From Escherichia phage mckay, in sequence record NC_073073.1: a stretch of 44,443 nt of DNA, one strand, 5' to 3'. Positions 1 through 44,443 of the stretch are shown in pieces; the first letter of the stretch is position 1, and each line of letters opens with the position of its first letter. A program made the translations under genes and the position numbers. The notes below the pieces were generated by a model that was not told the DNA's origin, did not search any database, and saw only the letters and a program-made list of their open reading frames with translations.

Positions 1-288
1 GAAGATGACGACGATGAAGAAGCCGAAGACGAAAAACCCGCTAAGTCTAAAAAAGCGAAAGGCAAAGGCAAGAAAGATGCCGATCCGCTGGCAGAGATGC
101 GCGACGAAATCAAACAGTATGCCGCGATTATTGCCGGTGGTGATGACGACGACGCGAACGACGAATTCGACGACCTGCTGGAATCGTTCGAGATCAAATC
201 AATCGCCAAGCTGGAAGATGACGACGTCGAAGACTTCCACACAGAGTTGAAAGAAATCGTCGAAACCTATTTCGAACTGGAAGATTAA
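1..288 (+). CDS. Acidic early protein, C-terminal part (5' part at 44293-44443; gene crosses the window end)
   Basis: Frame 1 is open from base 1 to TAA at 286-288 and is in frame with the ORF starting at 44293 once the 13-bp end overlap is counted once. Product is rich in D/E runs with K-rich patches. Confidence 0.6.
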   Translation, partial: EDDDDEEAEDEKPAKSKKAKGKGKKDADPLAEMRDEIKQYAAIIAGGDDDDANDEFDDLLESFEIKSIAKLEDDDVEDFHTELKEIVETYFELED

Positions 289-7216: not shown

Positions 7217-8641
7217 ATGGCACGATTCCGACGCCGCGAATATCAGAAGTTGATTACCGCGTTCATCCTCAAGCATAAGCGATGTAATATCTGGGCGACA
7301 ATGGGGTCGGGTAAAACCGGCGCGACAATGTGGGCGCTGAATAAAATGTTCCAGACGGGCATCCTGTCCCACCAGGAGGACCGCGTACTGGTTCTGGCCC
7401 CGCTGCGCGTTGCATCCGGCACCTGGCCCCCGGAGCAGGAGAAATGGCGGTTCTCATCCCTGCTGGTCGTAGACGGCACTGGACCAGAGAAGGACCGCAT
7501 AGCCGCGCTGGAGAGTAACGCTAACGTGGTTTGTGTTAACTACGATGTGGTTGAGTGGCTGGTCGACTATTACGGCGATGCGTGGCCCTTTACGGTCGTT
7601 GTTGCCGATGAATCGACTAAGCTGAAAGGCTATCGTAGCAAGCAGGGGAGCAAGCGCGCCCGCGCACTGGCCGCGATTGCACATAAACACGTCAAGCGAT
7701 GGATTAACCTTACCGGCACACCAGCGCCAAACGGGCTAAAAGACTTATGGGGTCAGACGTGGTTTGTCGACGGTGGCGAACGCCTCGGCAGTAGCTATAA
7801 GGCATTTACCGACCGCTGGTTTATTAGCAAGCCTGTTAAGCCTGGCAGCTTCACTATGCAGATCGCCCCGCTCAAGAACTCCGAGAAAGAAATACAACAA
7901 CGCCTGTCAGACGTATCCCTTACTGTTGACGCGGCTGAATACTTCGGGTGCGACAAGCCAATATATACGCCGGTTGTTGTGGACCTACCGAAGAAAGCCC
8001 GTAAGATTTACGACCAGTTTGAAAGCGAGCTATTTGCCGAACTGGAAAGCGGAACAGTGGAAGCGGCGAACGCCGCGGCGAAGACAATTAAGTGCCTTCA
8101 GCTTGCTTCCGGCGCGGTGTATAAGGTGGACGAAGACGGCGAACGGACCGACGAGTGGGTGAAGATTCACGACGCGAAGCTGGACGCGCTGGAAAGTATC
8201 GTGGAGGAGTTGAACGGAGCGCCGTTGCTCGTTGCGTACCAATACAAACATGACCTGGCACGTCTCAAGAAGAAATTTCCGCACGGCGTTGCGCTGGGTA
8301 AAGGTAAGCAGGGCAATAAGGATATGGAAGCGTGGAACAGAGGCGAGATCCCCATCATGTTTGCGCACCCGGCATCGGCGGGCCACGGCCTTAACTTGCA
8401 GGACGGCGGTCATCACCTGGCAATCTTCTCCGATACCTGGAACTTTGAGCACTTTTCGCAGATCGTTGAACGTATCGGGCCGGTTCGCCAGATGCAAGCA
8501 GGACACCCCCGTCCGGTATTCGTCTACATTATCCAGGCGCGCGGAACACTGGACGAACTGGTCGCCGAGCGTCGCGACAGTAAGCGGGATATTCAGGACG
8601 ACTTGATGGAATACATGAAAGCTAAAAAGGCGCGCAAATGA
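7217..8641 (+). CDS. SNF2-family (superfamily 2) DNA helicase
   Basis: Start at ATG 7217 (MARFRRREYQ); Walker A ATMGSGKTGA, DExx-type VVADESTKLK, C-terminal helicase region. Confidence 0.8.
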   Translation: MARFRRREYQKLITAFILKHKRCNIWATMGSGKTGATMWALNKMFQTGILSHQEDRVLVLAPLRVASGTWPPEQEKWRFSSLLVVDGTGPEKDRIAALESNANVVCVNYDVVEWLVDYYGDAWPFTVVVADESTKLKGYRSKQGSKRARALAAIAHKHVKRWINLTGTPAPNGLKDLWGQTWFVDGGERLGSSYKAFTDRWFISKPVKPGSFTMQIAPLKNSEKEIQQRLSDVSLTVDAAEYFGCDKPIYTPVVVDLPKKARKIYDQFESELFAELESGTVEAANAAAKTIKCLQLASGAVYKVDEDGERTDEWVKIHDAKLDALESIVEELNGAPLLVAYQYKHDLARLKKKFPHGVALGKGKQGNKDMEAWNRGEIPIMFAHPASAGHGLNLQDGGHHLAIFSDTWNFEHFSQIVERIGPVRQMQAGHPRPVFVYIIQARGTLDELVAERRDSKRDIQDDLMEYMKAKKARK

Positions 8642-9653: not shown

Positions 9654-9685
9654 TTGGTTGCATAATCATATTGGTTGCATTATAT
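9654..9685 (+). promoter_or_regulatory. Tandem TTGGTTGCA motifs forming a sigma70-like promoter (TTGCAT-17-TATATT)
   Basis: TTGGTTGCA at 9654-9662 and 9671-9679; the first supplies TTGCAT, 17 bp later TATATT (9680-9685), upstream of the gene at 9734. Confidence 0.4.
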
Positions 9686-9733
9686 TGAGGGTGTCCGGTT
9701 GGGACGCCCTTTTTAATACCTGGAGACAACACG

Positions 9734-9976: not shown

Positions 9977-10441
9977 ATGAAAATTTTACAAGAAGAGAAA
10001 AATTACTGGGCCGCGCAATGCCTCGAAGCCCGCGAGCAAGCCGAACGGGCGAACGCGCTGGCGGATACCTACCTGGCGAGCTATGAAGGCGAGGAGAAGG
10101 CGCGCAAGGAATTAGAGGAGCGCTTCGATCTGCTTTTCGAATTGATGGGGATTATGCAGCGCACCGGATATACAACCAGCGTTGCACTAAACCGCGTCAC
10201 GGCTGATGCGTTGCGGGAGCACTGTAAACGTGCGGAGGAGTACGTGCGCCCGAAGGGCCGCCAGTCTTCGATCGCCAGGAAAGACCTTGTGCTTATGGCG
10301 TGGCGCAACCCTACAAACGGCAGATTCTACCCGGACGCGCGCCCGCTTAGCGCCGAGGAATCAAAGCGCGTGCAACGCGTCATCAAAAAAGGCGATAAGA
10401 TCCCACTTTATGCGATAGACACCGACCATGACGAAGAATGA
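9977..10441 (+). CDS. Hypothetical protein (154 aa)
   Basis: ORF adjacent to the upstream stop; predicted coiled-coil N-terminus; no recognisable motif. Confidence 0.55.
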   Translation: MKILQEEKNYWAAQCLEAREQAERANALADTYLASYEGEEKARKELEERFDLLFELMGIMQRTGYTTSVALNRVTADALREHCKRAEEYVRPKGRQSSIARKDLVLMAWRNPTNGRFYPDARPLSAEESKRVQRVIKKGDKIPLYAIDTDHDEE

Positions 10442-10913
10442 GCAGAAGGATGGCTGGCGCACGCCGCCAGCTTTATTTAAACCGCTTCGTCGGAAGTACC
10501 GATTCCGTTACGATATGGCGGCAAGCGATGCAAACCACCTGCTACCGCGTTACTTCACGGAGGAGCACAGCGCGCTTGATGTGGACTGGTCCGAGTTGAA
10601 AGGGTGGAAGTGGTGCAATCCGCCGTATTCCGATCCGCTGCCGTGGGTAGAGTGCGCAGCGCACGGACGCAGGACGGTCATGCTGCTGAATCAGGACACG
10701 TCGACGAAGTGGGCGAAGCTGGCCCGGAAGACTGCAAACCTGATAATTCTTCTGGACTGGCGGATTAGATTCATTCACGCCGTCACCGGCGAAGTCGGGC
10801 CGAGCAATAACAAGTGCCAGCAATTGATAATCTTCGACGAAGCGCCACCCATCGGCAGCGCACAAATTGAAATAATGAGCGAAGGAGAACTCCTTGAATA
10901 TCTTAATCGTTGA
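10428..10913 (+). CDS. Phage Dam-type DNA N6-adenine methyltransferase
   Basis: WRTPPALF...RFRYDMAASDANHLLPRYFT...WCNPPYSD matches the phage Dam family with its NPPY motif. Confidence 0.8.
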   Translation: MTKNEQKDGWRTPPALFKPLRRKYRFRYDMAASDANHLLPRYFTEEHSALDVDWSELKGWKWCNPPYSDPLPWVECAAHGRRTVMLLNQDTSTKWAKLARKTANLIILLDWRIRFIHAVTGEVGPSNNKCQQLIIFDEAPPIGSAQIEIMSEGELLEYLNR

Positions 10914-11118
10914 CCGCGACCCCGCGGTCGTAGACCAAATGCAAAGAGACTACTGTATTGATCCGCGACGCAATCGTGTAGTACGCGCGTCTCGCCCCGA
11001 ATACATCCTGGGCCTTGACCTCACCGGTTGGCTTGTCATGACTCAGCGTTGCCATTTCGTGTGCAACTCCTTTACTGCGCGAAGCGCCCGTTACACCCTT
11101 ATTGAGAGTTTAAAATGA
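10894..11118 (+). CDS. Hypothetical protein (74 aa), TTG start
   Basis: ORF starts at TTG with GAAGGAG 6 nt upstream; overlaps the Dam 3' end. Confidence 0.4.
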   Translation: MNILIVDRDPAVVDQMQRDYCIDPRRNRVVRASRPEYILGLDLTGWLVMTQRCHFVCNSFTARSARYTLIESLK

Positions 11119-11585
11119 AATTACTGATTTGCGATTTGGATGGCGTTATTAACGGTTCAAGCGATGCGCGTGCCGACCTGGTGCCGGGGATAAAAACGAA
11201 ATCAACCTTTTGGGCAAAGTGGCACAAAGCGCACGTCCGCGAAGATCTGAACATGGATATGCTGCCGCTGCTGCGCATGTACAAAGAGCAAGGCTTCGAG
11301 ATCGCGTATCTGACCAACCGGCAGCGCGAATGTTGGGACACCACCGCCGAGCAATTGGAGGTCTTCCCCGTAGGTCGATTGTTCATGCGCCACATGCTGG
11401 ACGACACCCCGCCGCCAGAGTTTAAGGCGTGCGCCGTTTTCAAAATGGTCTGCTATGCGGACGTGTCGGAACTGGTCATCATTGAAGACTGTCCGAAGAA
11501 CATCGCGGCAATTCGTCGGGCGTGTGGTGATTTGGTCCCGAAAATTTACGCAATAAACGTTGCAAAATTCACTTGCAACCAATAG
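11115..11585 (+). CDS. HAD-superfamily phosphatase-like protein
   Basis: N-terminal MKLLICDLDGVI is the HAD motif I (DxD) signature. Confidence 0.5.
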   Translation: MKLLICDLDGVINGSSDARADLVPGIKTKSTFWAKWHKAHVREDLNMDMLPLLRMYKEQGFEIAYLTNRQRECWDTTAEQLEVFPVGRLFMRHMLDDTPPPEFKACAVFKMVCYADVSELVIIEDCPKNIAAIRRACGDLVPKIYAINVAKFTCNQ

Positions 11586-11602
11586 GTTGGTTGCACTATA
11601 GT
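11574..11602 (+). promoter_or_regulatory. Inverted repeat TGCAACCAA-tagg-TTGGTTGCA overlapping a TTGCAA-18-TATAGT promoter
   Basis: Perfect 9-bp inverted repeat with 4-bp spacer at 11574-11595, followed by TATAGT; upstream of the gene at 11649. Confidence 0.4.
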
Positions 11603-28203: not shown

Positions 28204-29313
28204 TTAGGACGCTGTGGTCGCAGTCAGCGTAACCAGTACGCCCGCCGTTTCCTTGATGTGACGGGTCGGCACTGCCTGTGCGGCCTGTGCGGCCTGGGTC
28301 TTACGACGGCCTTTAGTATCGCCATCACCAACAGCGCCAACGTCCTGCACGGTTGCCGGTGCGTTGTCTACCTGGCCCTGGTCCAGTTCCCAGTTAGCGG
28401 AAGTGGTAATATCGTCCAGTTTGAACGAGCGAACACCTTCGATCGGAGTACGAGCGGACGCCTTCAGACGATAGCCTTTAACAGCCACGTTGAAGTCGAA
28501 CTCGCCCTGCCACCAGCGCTCAATGTTCTCGTTACCGCCTTTTTCTTGCGCCAGCATATCAAGGCCGTTGGTGGTAACTGCAACCGCGCCAGGGACCAGA
28601 CCCAGCATTTTACCAGCGCCCATTGCATCGGCAGCGGCATCGGAGATGATGAAACGGCGGCCCAGGCCATCGCCCATTACTTGCAGATCTCCGATCGCGA
28701 ATACCTGCTCGGCAGATGGAAGCGCCTGGTACGCAATGAAGTTTGCCCAGGTAACGCCGTCCATAAACCAGGATTTAATCAAAGACGCCTGGTCGCCGAA
28801 CTTGGAAGCCGCCAGCGGGAAGTCAGCCAGGGTCGGGAAGGTACGACCGCCAACGCCGTCAACGCGCGCCGGTTGGGTGTAGTTTGCCGCTGCGTTGCTT
28901 TCGATAGCCGCTTTACCCGCGCCGATACCAGCTTTCAGATAGTGCAGCATAATCGCTTGAGTTGCCTGTGCCGCAATCTCAGCCGCAACGCTGTTAACGT
29001 TGGTTTCGATTTTAGCCATCATGGCCTTCGTGATCGCAACCGGACCCACTTTAGCGGAAAGGTTTACCGAGTTGGTCAGCATACGCGCCAGCACTTTTGC
29101 GGTCGCCGGAGTACCGACAGGGGCGTAGGCGTTACGGTCGGTAACGAGGTTGGCGATCAAGCCTACGGACATTTTCTCAACAACATCCTTCAGCACTTCA
29201 CCAGTACCGAGAACAACAGCGCCATTTGCGGCAGCGTTGAAAACATTCAGGTTGTCGGGGATCATTTGCGTAACCGCGGTAACGAGTTTACGCTGGAACA
29301 CTGTTAAAGACAT
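28204..29313 (-). CDS. Major capsid protein, putative
   Basis: 369 aa; position after the scaffold gene and before a strong terminator; A/G/V-rich composition typical of capsid proteins. Confidence 0.65.
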   Translation of the reverse strand: MSLTVFQRKLVTAVTQMIPDNLNVFNAAANGAVVLGTGEVLKDVVEKMSVGLIANLVTDRNAYAPVGTPATAKVLARMLTNSVNLSAKVGPVAITKAMMAKIETNVNSVAAEIAAQATQAIMLHYLKAGIGAGKAAIESNAAANYTQPARVDGVGGRTFPTLADFPLAASKFGDQASLIKSWFMDGVTWANFIAYQALPSAEQVFAIGDLQVMGDGLGRRFIISDAAADAMGAGKMLGLVPGAVAVTTNGLDMLAQEKGGNENIERWWQGEFDFNVAVKGYRLKASARTPIEGVRSFKLDDITTSANWELDQGQVDNAPATVQDVGAVGDGDTKGRRKTQAAQAAQAVPTRHIKETAGVLVTLTATTAS

Positions 29314-30115: not shown

Positions 30116-30205
30116 GCTATCCCCCTGGGATTGTGGCAGAGCAGGCCACCCGCTCGACTTCACGCTTCTAATATTATCAGCGATAAAAATAATCGCAAAA
30201 TTCGC

Positions 30206-30250
30206 TTGCAATCCGCGTATTGGTTGCACTATATTGGTTGCACACCAACA
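30206..30250 (+). promoter_or_regulatory. Promoter-like element with tandem TTGGTTGCA (TTGCAA-18-TATATT) upstream of the + strand moron
   Basis: TTGGTTGCA at 30220-30228 and 30234-30242; the 22-mer ctatattggttgcacaccaaca (30229-30250) recurs in reverse complement at 40765-40786 upstream of a - strand gene. Confidence 0.45.
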
Positions 30251-30264
30251 ACTAGGACACACAA

Positions 30265-31029
30265 ATGAGACTGACGAAAGACATTAAAAACCAGATTCTG
30301 GCTAACATCCTGCGCGACCATGAAATCGCGACCGAAGCCAAATCCATCATGATGGACTCTCGCAACCTTGCGTACGCCATTACGCTGGACTGTATGCCGG
30401 AAGGCATTCGCACTTTCGCCGAGCTACTCGCGCGCATTAAATCAATCGGCGATGACCCGTCGCAGATGTACGGAGTACGCGTATACACCAACAAGGCGAC
30501 GTATAGTTATAACGCTGACCGCCCGTATGGTATCGGCCACGTTTATGACGCCACTTTCGAAATCAACGCCGGCGGAAACGTCCGTACCGTGTCATTGAGC
30601 GGAGACGGACACCGATTCCGAGTACATCGCGGATACTGGGAATATAAATACATGAATAAGCTGTCTCCCGATCTCGGCGATATTGTGCCAGGGTATGAGG
30701 AAATTTTGTTAGCGTCAGTGTGCGAAGTGGACGAGGATGGGAAAGCGCTGCCGATCTATAAGCCGCGCTGTCGTGCAGATTTCCCGGCAGATCATGACTT
30801 CTGCAAGCGCCTGGACCGTAACGACAAGGCCCGCCGCGAGTTGCGTGCTAAGTATGACGCGTTCAAACTAACTGTTACCGGCGTGCTGGATATGCACAAT
30901 ACCGATAAGAAGCTGATCAAGGCGTGGCCTGAAGTTGAACAGTTTATTCCATACCCGGATAAGCCGAAGTCCACGGCGGTGGCGCTGGACGTGAAGACGT
31001 TAAACGAAATCTGCGGTATTCCGCGTTAA
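30265..31029 (+). CDS. Hypothetical protein (254 aa); opposite-strand moron inside the head module
   Basis: Complete ORF with AGGA RBS, own promoter-like element upstream and a hairpin terminator downstream, transcribed against the late operon; no motif I can name. Confidence 0.6.
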   Translation: MRLTKDIKNQILANILRDHEIATEAKSIMMDSRNLAYAITLDCMPEGIRTFAELLARIKSIGDDPSQMYGVRVYTNKATYSYNADRPYGIGHVYDATFEINAGGNVRTVSLSGDGHRFRVHRGYWEYKYMNKLSPDLGDIVPGYEEILLASVCEVDEDGKALPIYKPRCRADFPADHDFCKRLDRNDKARRELRAKYDAFKLTVTGVLDMHNTDKKLIKAWPEVEQFIPYPDKPKSTAVALDVKTLNEICGIPR

Positions 31030-31034
31030 CAAAA

Positions 31035-31060
31035 GGGGGCCATTATGGCCCCCGAATTAT
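31035..31060. terminator. Bidirectional terminator hairpin
   Basis: GGGGGCC-atta-TGGCCCCC with T-rich tracts on both sides (TTTTGTT on the - strand, GAATTATTTT on the + strand). Confidence 0.55.
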
Positions 31061-31273
31061 TTTCTGCAACTCCAGCACTTGCGCCCTTAGCTTCGCGCCG
31101 CATTCCATATTTTTCACGTCAATCATCAAATCTTCGTCGGGATCCGCGGACGGGTTATCGAACTTGCACGGCGGTCGCAGTGCCGACTCCGTTAGCGGCA
31201 TCAACGGCACGTTGCTTGATCCGCACGCGCTCAGCATCAAAACTACAATCAGGGCGGTTAGGGCGCGTAACAT
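31043..31273 (-). CDS. Outer-membrane spanin (Rz1-like lipoprotein), putative
   Basis: Start taken at ATG 31273: MLRALTALIVVLMLSAC has signal peptide plus lipobox LSAC; short Pro-containing mature part; lies in a second frame overlapping the 3' half of the i-spanin gene. Confidence 0.55.
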   Translation of the reverse strand: MLRALTALIVVLMLSACGSSNVPLMPLTESALRPPCKFDNPSADPDEDLMIDVKNMECGAKLRAQVLELQKIIRGP

Positions 31274-31484
31274 ATTTAACAACCTCTTTCGTGATAGTCC
31301 GGTATTCTACGTCGCGGGCTTGTTCGGCCTGCACGGAGCGCTCAATAACTTTAGTTTGCTGCCGTTGGGCTTCTGCTTGCGCTTCTTGCGCTGCTCTCGC
31401 CTCAACGCCAGCGCGGTAGGAATCACCCAGCCAGAAGCCAACCGCCAGGCCGATAACCAGCCCAATCGCTGCATATTTAATCAC
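31155..31484 (-). CDS. Inner-membrane spanin (Rz-like), putative
   Basis: Start taken at GTG 31484 (GGGGGC RBS); N-terminal transmembrane helix IKYAAIGLVIGLAVGFWLG, then coiled-coil (RAAQEAQAEAQRQQ) and a C-terminal Cys; overlaps the o-spanin gene. Confidence 0.5.
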   Translation of the reverse strand: MIKYAAIGLVIGLAVGFWLGDSYRAGVEARAAQEAQAEAQRQQTKVIERSVQAEQARDVEYRTITKEVVKYVTRPNRPDCSFDAERVRIKQRAVDAANGVGTATAVQVR

Positions 31485-32580
31485 GCCATAGCCCCCGGTT
31501 TTTAAGCTGTGCAATAGTCATCAGTTCGCCGGAATCGGTGAACATCTTTGGCACTTTCACACCGCGCATAATCTGGTCGGCGCGTTGCACCCCGTATAAT
31601 TCTTCCAGGATATGGCGCGGCTGGCGCTGCACCCAGGAGAAGAAATCAGTCTGCGCGTCGACCTGCTCACTCAGCAACCGACCCGCGTCAGCCTTCAGTG
31701 CCGGACGCTTACCACTGGGCCAGTCTTCCATGCCCTTAACTTTCCACGTCTCCGTCGAACGGCAGCAATAATGCAGCTTGCCCGGACCAGCGCCATATTG
31801 TGATCCCGCCACCACTTTCCCGCCGCGTTTTCCTTTGGTGTCGGGAGTGACGTCAACAGGATAAAACAGGCGATCGCGTAGCTGGCACATAGGGGAAGTA
31901 TGAGTGTCCAATGTGGCCAACCATTGGCGACCTTCGAGAATATCGTCATTAGCTTTCACCATTAATTCGCGGGCGGTCGCCGCATAGTGGTTGACAGCGG
32001 ACTTAACAACGCTTGAGATTGCTTGCGCACTACGACCGCCGAGCGCGCGCCTCACGTCCGCGATAATTTCCATAGTCGGCTTGCCCTGGATGAATCCGGC
32101 GCGCACCTGATTGCCGATCTGCGTCCTTGTCCACTCTGAAAGTGAATCCGGCCATTGCATCATGGTGTTACCCTGGAACGGGTTTTTCATCGCAGTCGCT
32201 GCGATCTGCGCGCCTGTTACTACACCCACCACCTCGACCGCAGGTACGGCGACCACCGGCTGGATCACTGCCGTTAATGTGTCGGCGAGATAATCGGCCT
32301 CGATGTCGGCAAACTCCTGAAGGCTTTCAGCCAGCGCCTTAAACTCGGTGCGCAGTTCTGTTTTAACGGTCTTGTCGAGTTGCGTTAACAGTGTGGTAAG
32401 TGCCTTGTTGCTCATGGACTTTTTGCCATCAAGTAACTCGGTCAGCTTACCAAGTAAAGTGGGCCGGAACTTCTCCCACATAGCCAGCACCCTCCGCGCC
32501 TGATCATTGCTCAGGCGCTGGGTGAAGATGTGACGGCGAATCATTCGATCCGCCAAATGTTGATTAATTGTCTTCGCCAT
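31477..32580 (-). CDS. Head morphogenesis protein (Mu F / SPP1 gp7-like minor head protein)
   Basis: 367 aa; ATLDTHTSPMCQ...DG is the characteristic Mu F-like motif; follows the portal gene. Confidence 0.75.
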   Translation of the reverse strand: MAKTINQHLADRMIRRHIFTQRLSNDQARRVLAMWEKFRPTLLGKLTELLDGKKSMSNKALTTLLTQLDKTVKTELRTEFKALAESLQEFADIEADYLADTLTAVIQPVVAVPAVEVVGVVTGAQIAATAMKNPFQGNTMMQWPDSLSEWTRTQIGNQVRAGFIQGKPTMEIIADVRRALGGRSAQAISSVVKSAVNHYAATARELMVKANDDILEGRQWLATLDTHTSPMCQLRDRLFYPVDVTPDTKGKRGGKVVAGSQYGAGPGKLHYCCRSTETWKVKGMEDWPSGKRPALKADAGRLLSEQVDAQTDFFSWVQRQPRHILEELYGVQRADQIMRGVKVPKMFTDSGELMTIAQLKNRGLWRD

Positions 32581-36148: not shown

Positions 36149-36361
36149 TTAAACGTCGCGCCCGTAGTATCGGGTTAACATGCTTTGTACTTCGCTTATC
36201 GCGCCTTCTGTGTAGCGTATTTGCGACAGTATCTCGATCCTCTCGTCCATCGACATTCCGACTGCCGCTGCCGTTCGTTCAAATCGGCGCAAGCCTTCGA
36301 GTTGTTTGCGTAGTTCTTTCAGGCGGGTGGCCTGCGTGCTCATGAATACTTGTCTGATCAT
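36149..36361 (-). CDS. Hypothetical small protein (70 aa)
   Basis: ORF whose start overlaps the upstream stop (ATGA). Confidence 0.5.
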   Translation of the reverse strand: MIRQVFMSTQATRLKELRKQLEGLRRFERTAAAVGMSMDERIEILSQIRYTEGAISEVQSMLTRYYGRDV

Positions 36362-37500
36362 TTCAACATTTCCGGGCTAATGGTTAAGCGCGCTACTTCT
36401 CCGTAGTTGGCGCTATAGGTGATGACGTTTGCGCTGCGACCGGACATCCAACCGCCACGACTGGCGTAGGCGTCTTTCGCTGCGAGCGTCCTGTGCTGTT
36501 CAACAATCATGTTGCGGGATTCAACAATCTTCTGGTGGTGCAAATGGCCTACGTGAGCGTAGCTGTATTCGCTCGACCCGAACGCCTGTCTGAATTTAGC
36601 GATCATAACCTGCTCGATAGCATCGAATCGCGCTTTGTGCCCGTGGTGGAAGAATAGAGTTGTCTTACCGTGCTGCACCATTTTGTAGACGTCCGGGGAC
36701 GTATCCACATCGACGCGCGGATCGTTCTCGTACAGAGTATTGAACATCTCAGCCAGCCAAATCATACCCGACTCGTCATGATTTCCCTGGACGATTAGCA
36801 GTTTGACTTTGTGGTGTTTTTGCAGCGCCAGTTCGACGACGTTGCGCACCATGCGAATCATGTAGCGGACCAACTTCTGGTATCGGGTATCTGCGTCCAG
36901 GATATGACCACTGGCTGGGGTGACGGCATCGAGGCTATCAAAATGCGCCATATCACCGAGGATATTGATTACGGCAGTTCCTGCGTCTGGTGCGCGGGCG
37001 AAGGCTTCGACAAACCAGCGGTAAAACAGGTCTTCGGCAATCGCCATATCCCAGTCTTCGCCAGTCTCCTCGCCCCAGGCCAACATGCCCAGGTGGAAGT
37101 CGGACACGGTATACAGGTTGAGCAAGTCGAGCGCCTTGATCGGTACTGGCGGGGCGTTTACTGGCGCTGCCGGTGTGATTTCGCTGTTCATACCCTCGAC
37201 AACAGCGCGCATAGCTTCGAGTTGGCGCTCCTTGTCCTGCTCGGTGATGACCCATGACATGACCTCCTCGCCATTGCCGCGCACCAGGGCGGAGACACGC
37301 TTAACGCCAAAACCATCGGCAACGCGCTTACGGATTACGGCATCGTTACCGTGACCAATACCTTTTTTCGATAGGCGGGCTTTGCGCATGTAGACATTTC
37401 GGAGGGATAGGCCGTACTTCTTCGCAATATCTTTCGATGTAGTGCCGGATTGCAACTCGGCGATCAATTGCTCGTCGGTGATTTTAGTTTGCGGGTGCAT
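36358..37500 (-). CDS. HTH-fused calcineurin-like metallophosphoesterase
   Basis: 380 aa; N-terminal HTH-like TSKDIAKKYGLSLRNVYMRKARL; metallophosphoesterase motifs DFHLG, GDMAHFD, GNHDE, HHGH, GHLHH in canonical order. Confidence 0.7.
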   Translation of the reverse strand: MHPQTKITDEQLIAELQSGTTSKDIAKKYGLSLRNVYMRKARLSKKGIGHGNDAVIRKRVADGFGVKRVSALVRGNGEEVMSWVITEQDKERQLEAMRAVVEGMNSEITPAAPVNAPPVPIKALDLLNLYTVSDFHLGMLAWGEETGEDWDMAIAEDLFYRWFVEAFARAPDAGTAVINILGDMAHFDSLDAVTPASGHILDADTRYQKLVRYMIRMVRNVVELALQKHHKVKLLIVQGNHDESGMIWLAEMFNTLYENDPRVDVDTSPDVYKMVQHGKTTLFFHHGHKARFDAIEQVMIAKFRQAFGSSEYSYAHVGHLHHQKIVESRNMIVEQHRTLAAKDAYASRGGWMSGRSANVITYSANYGEVARLTISPEMLK

Positions 37501-40764: not shown

Positions 40765-40820
40765 TGTTGGTGTGCAACCAATATAGCAAGGTGCCAGGCT
40801 GAATGCAACCAATATCAAAC
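40765..40820 (-). promoter_or_regulatory. Promoter-like element for the leftward middle genes (TTGCAT-17-TATATT with TTGGTTGCA motifs)
   Basis: On the - strand ATTGGTTGCAT...TATATTGGTTGCACACCAAC, the same arrangement and near-identical sequence as upstream of the + strand moron at 30229-30250. Confidence 0.45.
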
Positions 40821-44292: not shown

Positions 44293-44443
44293 ATGTTTGA
44301 GCAAATCGTAAACCTGATCACTCGCGGCGTAGTAGCACTGGAAACCATCGCTAAGCATTATGAAACCGTTGGCGCTGCCGTTGGTAAACAGGAAGATAAG
44401 AAGCCGTCTAAGGCGAAAAAAGAAGTCGTAGAAGATGACGACG
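44293..44443 (+). CDS. Acidic early protein, N-terminal part (continues at 1-288 across the window end)
   Basis: ATG 44293 with GGAGA RBS; open to the window end and in frame with 1-288 through the 13-bp overlap. Confidence 0.6.
   Translation, partial: MFEQIVNLITRGVVALETIAKHYETVGAAVGKQEDKKPSKAKKEVVEDDD

Follow-up and report, generated by a model that had tools for sequence, protein, structure and literature searches.

The open reading frame (ORF) at positions 30265-31029 on the plus strand of the Escherichia phage mckay genome is nmad5, a gene already described in the Dhillonvirus phages of E. coli. Its product belongs to a known Pfam family, and the published Dhillonvirus gene has a defense-related phenotype. 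The analysis presented here adds a description of the cassette that contains nmad5, the variants of that cassette, an early-class promoter, a comparison with phages in which the corresponding slot of the early replication operon is occupied, and the location of a published escape residue in the core motif of the family. On balance, Nmad5 is probably expressed early and serves phage DNA metabolism as a binding or adaptor protein without catalytic activity, although we infer all three elements of this reading: when the gene is expressed, that its role is one of non-enzymatic binding, and what partner it binds.

Identity of the gene between the spanin and scaffold genes

The whole stretch of DNA that was analyzed, referred to here as the window, is 44,443 nt long, comes from a Dhillonvirus (an E. 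coli siphovirus), and is probably a complete, circularly permuted genome, because both of its ends cut one gene, a homolog of BF9 gp35 (~44293-44443 joined to 1-288, plus strand). BF9 gp35 has 172 aa, with repeats that alternate between acidic and basic; relative to BF9, a simple join of the mckay ends gives a gp35-like gene that is out of frame or has a different number of repeats.

An earlier note on the window had described a complete, opposite-strand ORF of 254 aa at 30265-31029, and this description is exact: the ORF starts with ATG, encodes 254 aa followed by a stop codon, and has all of its neighbors on the minus strand. These neighbors are the genes for the major capsid protein (28204-29313), the scaffold (29411 to ~30115), the o-spanin with its lipobox (31043-31282), the i-spanin (31155-31514), a head morphogenesis protein (31477-32580), the portal, and the large terminase (TerL). 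The o-spanin gene overlaps the 3' part of the i-spanin gene in another frame, an overlapped spanin architecture. A Shine-Dalgarno-like AGGA (30254-30257) lies 7 nt before the nmad5 ATG. An in-frame stop codon four codons 5' of the ATG rejects the longer N-terminus that is annotated in phage SM_S22.

The earlier note could name no motif in the protein, and in this it was mistaken. Nmad5 matches the Pfam family Nmad5 (PF18757) with an E-value of 9.2e-55 and a score of 186.3 bits, against a curated gathering cut-off of 27, and the alignment is full length, covering residues 1-253 of the protein and all 206 positions of the profile. The protein also matches PHROG 1965 (E 1.4e-60); searches of NCBIfam and PADLOC returned no meaningful match. 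The nmad5 region is 90-95% identical to ~135 phage records, and the protein is 96.5% identical to that of KS_S9 and 93% identical to that of SM_S22. Orthology with the Dhillonvirus nmad5 is evident from the shared spanin-scaffold locus, from identity above 90%, and from the lysine at residue 216, encoded in mckay by the wild-type AAG codon at 30910-30912.

Across 12 distinct alleles from the genus, dN/dS for nmad5 is 0.11, and the gene is therefore under purifying selection and more than a chance ORF. By region, dN/dS is 0.07 for residues 1-45, 0.21 and 0.13 in the middle of the protein, and 0.01 for residues 178-254 at a dS of 0.64. With a regional peak of 0.21, diversifying selection in the variable middle is rejected as an average property. 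The GC content between 30 and 31 kb is 0.511, a small difference from the 0.53-0.57 of the adjacent kilobases. Elsewhere in the window, annotations of related phages conflict for a 380-aa product (36358-37500, minus strand): BF9 labels it “HTH luxR-type” and SM_S22 “DNA repair exonuclease”, and its only Pfam matches are weak ones to calcineurin-like phosphoesterases.

Mutations in nmad5 and escape from Tmn

The phenotype of nmad5 comes from a study of the defense system Tmn, in which mutants of SM_A8 and SM_S22 that had escaped Tmn independently carried the substitution K216E (Yamashita et al. 2025, Commun Biol, PMC11846954). The same substitution is K296E in SM_S22 numbering (PMC11846954), a difference that arises because the 334-aa annotation in SM_S22 is over-extended and overlaps the scaffold gene. 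Reverting K216E brings back sensitivity to Tmn, and K216E introduced alone suffices for escape (PMC11846954). In the same study, deletion of nmad5 was viable and did not confer escape, cloning of nmad5 failed, apparently through toxicity, and wild-type phages with nmad5 stayed sensitive to Tmn (PMC11846954). The nmad5 genes of SM_S22, SM_A8, and KS_S9 are the same gene at the same locus with lysine at 216, and nothing substantive differs in mckay. By orthology, the mckay gene should share the viable deletion, the toxicity on cloning, and the escape through K216E. The suggestion of the earlier note that the gene has a host-interaction function such as anti-defense or exclusion is thus partly supported: there is a published link to Tmn, but phages that carry wild-type nmad5 remain sensitive to that system.

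One reading of these data is that Nmad5 is the phage trigger sensed by Tmn, with K216E abolishing recognition. The literature gives no trigger for Tmn, only synergy with NTP-sensing ATPases. The same residue changed independently in escapers of two phages, reversion restored sensitivity, and K216 is on a conserved surface, all of which are consistent with recognition of Nmad5. However, a phage lacking nmad5 is still sensitive to Tmn, so that Nmad5 cannot be the sole trigger, and Tmn also blocks T1, whereas no Tunavirus is present among the 341 records with tblastn hits to Nmad5. We therefore regard this reading as very unlikely.

Two further genes of the window have a bearing on defense systems. 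The plus-strand ORF at 9977-10441 encodes a 154-aa protein that has no Pfam match and is 90% identical to SM_S22 CDS0035, which is probably the published anti-Tmn “ORF35”, assuming that the numbering matches. Given this similarity, mckay probably carries an anti-Tmn homolog alongside wild-type nmad5. Small sequence differences decide whether homologs of ORF35 work against Tmn (PMC11846954). A relationship between Nmad5 and the published anti-Tmn protein is rejected, since Nmad5 has no similarity to SM_S22 CDS0035. The second gene is a plus-strand ORF of 74 aa with a TTG start (10894-11118), located between the genes for a Dam methyltransferase (10428-10913) and a HAD phosphatase (11115-11585). 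Its position and length are those of Ksap1, a Dhillonvirus protein that activates KpAvs2 (PMC11564622), which makes it a candidate Ksap1 homolog. The possibility that nmad5 is itself Ksap1 is rejected, since Ksap1 is the product of a 74-aa gene between methyltransferase and phosphatase genes.

A predicted self-contained transcription unit with an early-class promoter

The earlier note had credited the gene with its own promoter-like element and terminator, and both are found in the sequence, at 30206-30235 and 31035-31053, and are conserved in the genus. The promoter-like site is of the sigma-70 type and at consensus level, with a −35 element TTGCAA (30206-30211), an 18-nt spacer, and a −10 element TATATT (30230-30235) on the plus strand, and it is kept in all variants of the cassette and in every aligned relative, including one with 64% protein identity. 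Two direct copies of ATTGGTTGCAC, at 30219 and 30233 on the plus strand (together spanning 30219-30243), flank the −10 hexamer, and the second copy runs on into a short palindrome, TTGGT-TGCAC-ACCAA. The 10-mer TTGGTTGCAC, allowing at most one mismatch, occurs 16 times against an expectation of 3.7, and none of 100 shuffles reaches 16. It is possible that the ATTGGTTGCAC/TTGGTTGCAC repeats are a candidate regulator site or a signature of the promoter class.

The pattern of the class consists of TTGCA(A/T), a spacer of 17-18 nt, and TATA(T/G)T, with TTGGTTGCAY in or beside the spacer. Apart from the nmad5 copy, sites of this class are found only in non-structural regions, at 9658-9686 (plus strand), 11573-11602 (plus strand), and 40808-40780 (minus strand), and the site at 40808 also has the downstream GGTTGCACACCAAC in common with nmad5. 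At 11573-11596 the motif of the class is arranged as an inverted repeat (TTGCAACCAA...TTGGTTGCA), possibly an operator. Because nmad5 shares its promoter class with sites in non-structural regions, host RNA polymerase would be expected to transcribe it along with the early or middle genes rather than the late genes that surround it.

At the other end of the unit, a GC-rich hairpin, GGGGGCCATTATGGCCCCC (31035-31053), has a predicted folding energy of -18.2 kcal/mol on the plus strand and -20.3 kcal/mol on the minus strand, with the better U-tract on the minus strand. Strong folding on both strands, together with this U-tract, gives the hairpin the shape of a bidirectional intrinsic terminator, which would end nmad5 on the plus strand and the spanin block on the minus strand. 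The hairpin overlaps the stop codon of the o-spanin gene and is kept in all variants of the locus, including those without nmad5. Since this terminator precedes the scaffold-capsid operon, that operon must restart transcription. The ~90 bp that separate the nmad5 promoter from the start codon of the scaffold gene (30116-30205) are almost invariant across the genus, and may contain a late promoter, or a site for an activator, from which the scaffold-capsid operon is transcribed; a promoter scan found no sigma-70-like promoter on the minus strand of this segment.

Variation of the cassette across Dhillonvirus

Among ~155 records with the terminase of the genus, ~148 have Nmad5, counted at no less than 60% identity. 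Sequence comparison gives the order of the cassette as an early-class sigma-70 promoter-like site, an optional extra gene, nmad5, and the predicted bidirectional terminator. In mckay, KS_S9, and BF9 the cassette contains only nmad5; in PTXU06, EP23, and others, an extra gene of 135-170 aa lies between the promoter and nmad5; in HK578, and also in SO-1 and JLBYU27 (the last two by coverage only), the extra gene is present and nmad5 is absent; and Teewinot has neither gene. The extra gene is of two types. That of EP23 (EP23p08, 170 aa; 1165-1677 of record L037) belongs to PHROG 3007, which is in the DNA-metabolism category and carries the label “RusA-like”, and it has a weak match to the central domain of the DNA polymerase III beta subunit. 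The HK578/PTXU06 type (135-140 aa; HK578_006 at 1156-1578 of L036, and 1173-1580 of L039) has no family match.

The records that lack nmad5 retain pieces of it. In HK578, the first five codons (ATGAGACTGACGAAA) are fused to the terminator (L036, 1622-1637), and in Teewinot, codon 33 is followed directly, in a different frame, by the final few codons of the gene (L038, 1165 to ~1290), so that codons 1-33 are retained. The Teewinot record annotates the region of the scar within an over-long “gp7”. Judged by these scars, the losses in HK578 and Teewinot are at least two independent secondary deletions and not an ancestral absence. As to presence and absence in related phages, a check that the earlier note had proposed, the gene is nearly fixed in the genus, the absences seen are secondary deletions, and a second gene has been gained or lost beside it.

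Genomic contexts of Nmad5 homologs

An exhaustive profile search at E ≤0.001 places 811 clusters (50% identity) in the Nmad5 family, with members found in phages of Escherichia, Pseudomonas, Bordetella, Vibrio, and Serratia and in an alphaproteobacterial phage. Genomic contexts were examined for about a dozen lineages out of these 811 clusters. One comparison is with a sister clade of 40-49 kb phages, whose PolA, SNF2, DUF2800, and primase-helicase proteins are 48-67% identical to those of mckay. In the sister clade, a helicase gene and an HTH gene on the minus strand are followed on the other strand by a gp35-like gene, Nmad5, a homolog of the mckay ORF at 337-588, and DUF2800, and then by genes for an Enc34-type SSB, PolA, SNF2, and Dam. 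The order in mckay is the same, but nothing lies between the gp35-like gene and the ORF at 337-588. This empty slot in the early replication operon of mckay suggests that nmad5 was relocated from there. Between Dhillonvirus and the sister clade, Nmad5 itself is only 23-27% identical.

Other lineages place the gene in similar company. Nmad5 lies directly after DUF2800 and PolA in lineage L003. In L034 it is flanked by a DEAD helicase on one side and a VRR-NUC nuclease on the other, with SSB and primase genes close by. It occurs with a PD-(D/E)XK nuclease and a RecT-like protein in L027, with a primase-helicase, PolA, and a 5'-3' exonuclease in L028, and with RNR, ThyX, and a 2OG-Fe(II) oxygenase in L030. 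In L005, where the protein is 34% identical, the gene is one of a group of small plus-strand genes that converge with the spanin, MuF, and portal genes, and in L035 no family matches were found among its neighbors. The oxygenase of L030 is AlkB-like and is encoded two genes upstream of Nmad5 (7846-8613); L034 encodes a MazZ-like dATP/dGTP pyrophosphohydrolase (PF04447; 14578-15477) 6 kb from Nmad5. In the lambdoid phage HK542, gp33 comes immediately after N in the pL operon and ahead of cIII, Erf, and Abc2, an early and non-essential-looking position beside recombination and anti-RecBCD genes. HK542 gp33 scores 243 bits on the Nmad5 model, the best of any member seen, and has homologs in many Stx-converting phages; it differs from mckay Nmad5 in its length of 207 aa, in lacking the Dhillonvirus insertions, and in belonging to a temperate phage that uses the host replication machinery.

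The Yuavirus (M6-like) homolog, which matches the family over its full length (112 bits) and likewise has an early nucleotide-metabolism and replication context, lies between genes for a 5-hmdU DNA kinase and a thymidylate-synthase-like protein, upstream of PolA, and has been listed in a thymidine hypermodification cassette (PMC9476957). Among the contexts examined, Yuavirus is the only one in which Nmad5 adjoins genes for hypermodification enzymes. In contrast, the mckay genes that were checked include neither a 5-hmdU DNA kinase nor a thymidylate-synthase-like gene, and no aGPT-Pplase, hydroxymethylase, or radical-SAM enzyme was found among them, only the Dam methyltransferase (10428-10913). 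As read from gene neighborhoods, the common denominator of the Nmad5 contexts is an early replication, recombination, or nucleotide-metabolism module and not the chemistry of base modification.

These contexts bear on the view of the earlier note that the gene is a moron. Like classic morons in the lambda/HK97 sense, nmad5 is a dispensable promoter-gene-terminator unit between late blocks, self-contained and with a content that varies within the genus. Unlike them, it is nearly fixed in its genus (~148/155 records), which does not fit sporadic recent acquisition, it belongs to a virulent phage and so has no role in lysogenic conversion, and its homologs are regular members of early operons in other phages. 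Its near fixation and the early replication and recombination operons of its homologs point to a displaced early gene as a better description than a classic moron.

A related proposal is that nmad5 is a dedicated anti-defense or superinfection-exclusion moron, the wild-type protein of which inhibits some other immune system, with K216E retargeting or broadening the inhibition to Tmn. Such a role would fit a cassette that is insulated, varies in content, and brings a promoter and terminator of its own, and it would also fit the dispensability of the gene, the resemblance of K216E escape to a gain of function, and a divergence much faster than that of the replication core (23-27% versus 48-67% identity). 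The position of the lambdoid homolog just after N fits as well, the lambda region just after N being one that holds accessory host-interaction genes. Nevertheless, wild-type Nmad5 gives no protection from Tmn, the family is found consistently in replication and recombination modules rather than accessory islands, there is no positive selection on average (highest regional dN/dS 0.21), and the conserved base of the protein, described below, is maintained over a wider range of hosts than is typical of inhibitors of a single defense. We consider this proposal doubtful.

The surroundings of nmad5 in mckay, between the spanin and head-morphogenesis genes on one side and the scaffold and capsid genes on the other, could also be taken to mean that Nmad5 is a structural or virion-assembly protein. 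The opposite strand, the early-class promoter, and the early replication operons of the homologs argue against this, as do the dispensability of the gene, its natural deletions, and the lack of a structural family match in Pfam or PHROG, and a structural role appears extremely improbable. The statement of the earlier note that the gene is not part of the usual head and tail set is borne out by the same observations.

Conservation and predicted structure of the family

Members of the Nmad5 family typically have 190-230 aa, with conservation concentrated in the first ~40 and last ~90 residues. The Dhillonvirus branch differs from the rest of PF18757 by ~60 extra residues in the middle of the protein (roughly 75-95 and 118-165), and by the location of its gene, which stands alone and apart from genes for nucleotide modification or replication. 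Conservation was assessed in 159 members, each representing a cluster at ≤50% identity. The conserved positions are R2, L3, T4, G104, T213, L217, W221, P222, E223, P229, L246, N247, G251, and P253; all are present in mckay Nmad5, and their frequencies among the representatives are 0.67-0.99. The escape residue K216 is inside T213-x-x-K-L217-x-x-x-W221-P222-E223, the most conserved motif of the family. The column of K216 contains K in 92 representatives, Q in 30, R in 19, and A in 10, and is never D or E; one of K, Q, or R is thus found in 141/159. No constellation of conserved residues of a catalytic type was found among the 159 representatives; most of the conserved set is L, W, P, and G.

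Two AlphaFold2 models of the protein were obtained, with pLDDT values of 73.6 and 78.2 and pTM values of 0.73 and 0.75; the deeper alignment behind the second gained only ~12 diverse sequences, and the rise in pLDDT was modest. In both models, long helices predicted at residues 5-42 and 178-209 form an antiparallel stalk, at one end of which are a small beta-sheet (roughly residues 79-110, plus 171-173) and the lineage-specific insertions. Short helices predicted at 214-227 bear the K-L...W-P-E motif, and residue 2 forms a beta-bridge with residue 213, so that the invariant N-terminus would pack against the motif containing K216. Model confidence is low in the middle of the protein and in the strongly conserved C-terminal tail, and we interpret the latter as a segment that may become ordered upon contact with a partner. 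A fold search with these moderately confident models detected no known fold, enzyme or other. Homology searches, structure prediction, and the fold search, which the earlier note had named as checks, thus assigned no standard virion-assembly function.

Another reading takes the family name literally: Nmad5 would modify the bases of DNA, or nucleotides, as an enzyme whose fold may be new, and Tmn would sense the modification or be affected by it. The name has been traced to Iyer et al. 2013 (according to PMC11846954), and Yamashita et al. assume DNA modification by Nmad5 in their reading of Tmn (PMC11846954). Besides the name, this reading draws on the Yuavirus neighbors, which include genes for a 5-hmdU DNA kinase, an aGPT-Pplase, and a thymidylate-synthase-like protein, on the constant presence of the family among genes of DNA or nucleotide metabolism, and on a few conserved polar residues (R2, T213, E223, and N247). 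It is difficult to reconcile with the absence of partner modification enzymes in Dhillonvirus, the sister clade, the lambdoid pL operon, and most other contexts, or with a conserved set made up mostly of L, W, P, and G in a protein for which no known enzyme fold was detected. Dhillonviruses that carry nmad5 are sensitive to restriction-modification (PMC8594841, PMC11990801). Moreover, deletion of nmad5 leaves Tmn sensitivity unchanged, so loss of the putative modification would have no effect on Tmn. Overall, an enzymatic role seems unlikely.

An early binding protein as the preferred explanation

The preferred explanation is that Nmad5 would be expressed early from a host-type promoter and would act by binding. 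Its predicted architecture is a helical stalk (5-42 and 178-209) with a variable beta-sheet “head” at one end and a conserved “base”, consisting of R2-L3-T4, the T213-K216-L217-W221-P222-E223 motif, and the C-terminal tail L246-N247...G251-x-P253. The base would contact a partner that is conserved across proteobacterial hosts or across phage replication modules. Such contact would explain why the gene is toxic when cloned, and why the outcome of Tmn defense is altered by reversing the charge of residue 216 but not by deleting the gene. A binding role would also account for the breadth of hosts together with the constancy of the module contexts, for conservation that is hydrophobic or structural, and for dispensability in the laboratory. 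Several observations count against a non-catalytic role: R2, T213, E223, and N247 are conserved polar residues, the Yuavirus gene is inside a thymidine hypermodification cassette, and MazZ-like and AlkB-like genes occur in other contexts.

A broader version of this explanation can be put forward more tentatively, as a possibility that we do not regard as the probable one. “Nmad5” may be a misnomer, and the 811 clusters may make up a widespread group of early proteins in phages that share a distinct fold. Their base would dock on a conserved component of DNA or nucleotide metabolism, of the bacterium or of the phage; the single substitution K216E would suffice to neutralize the KAP-NTPase defense Tmn, and the Dhillonvirus copy would be a gene of the early replication operon that was captured by an autonomous cassette within the head module.

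Implications for the Nmad5 family

As a gene, nmad5 has already been named and was used in 2025 for engineering phages against Tmn, and one more Dhillonvirus copy is ordinary. What the family name says about function derives from gene neighborhoods and not from a tested activity. Because most contexts are free of modification enzymes, no enzyme fold was detected, conservation is of a structural kind, and the phages are sensitive to restriction-modification, the comparison suggests that the label “DNA modification enzyme” is guilt by association from one phage group. If the binding model is correct, the Tmn-escape mutation would be an altered protein-protein interface of an early accessory protein of DNA metabolism. 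Experiments would then shift toward interactors and toward K216E supplied in trans, and away from nucleoside chemistry, and a large uncharacterized family of phage proteins would be opened to study.
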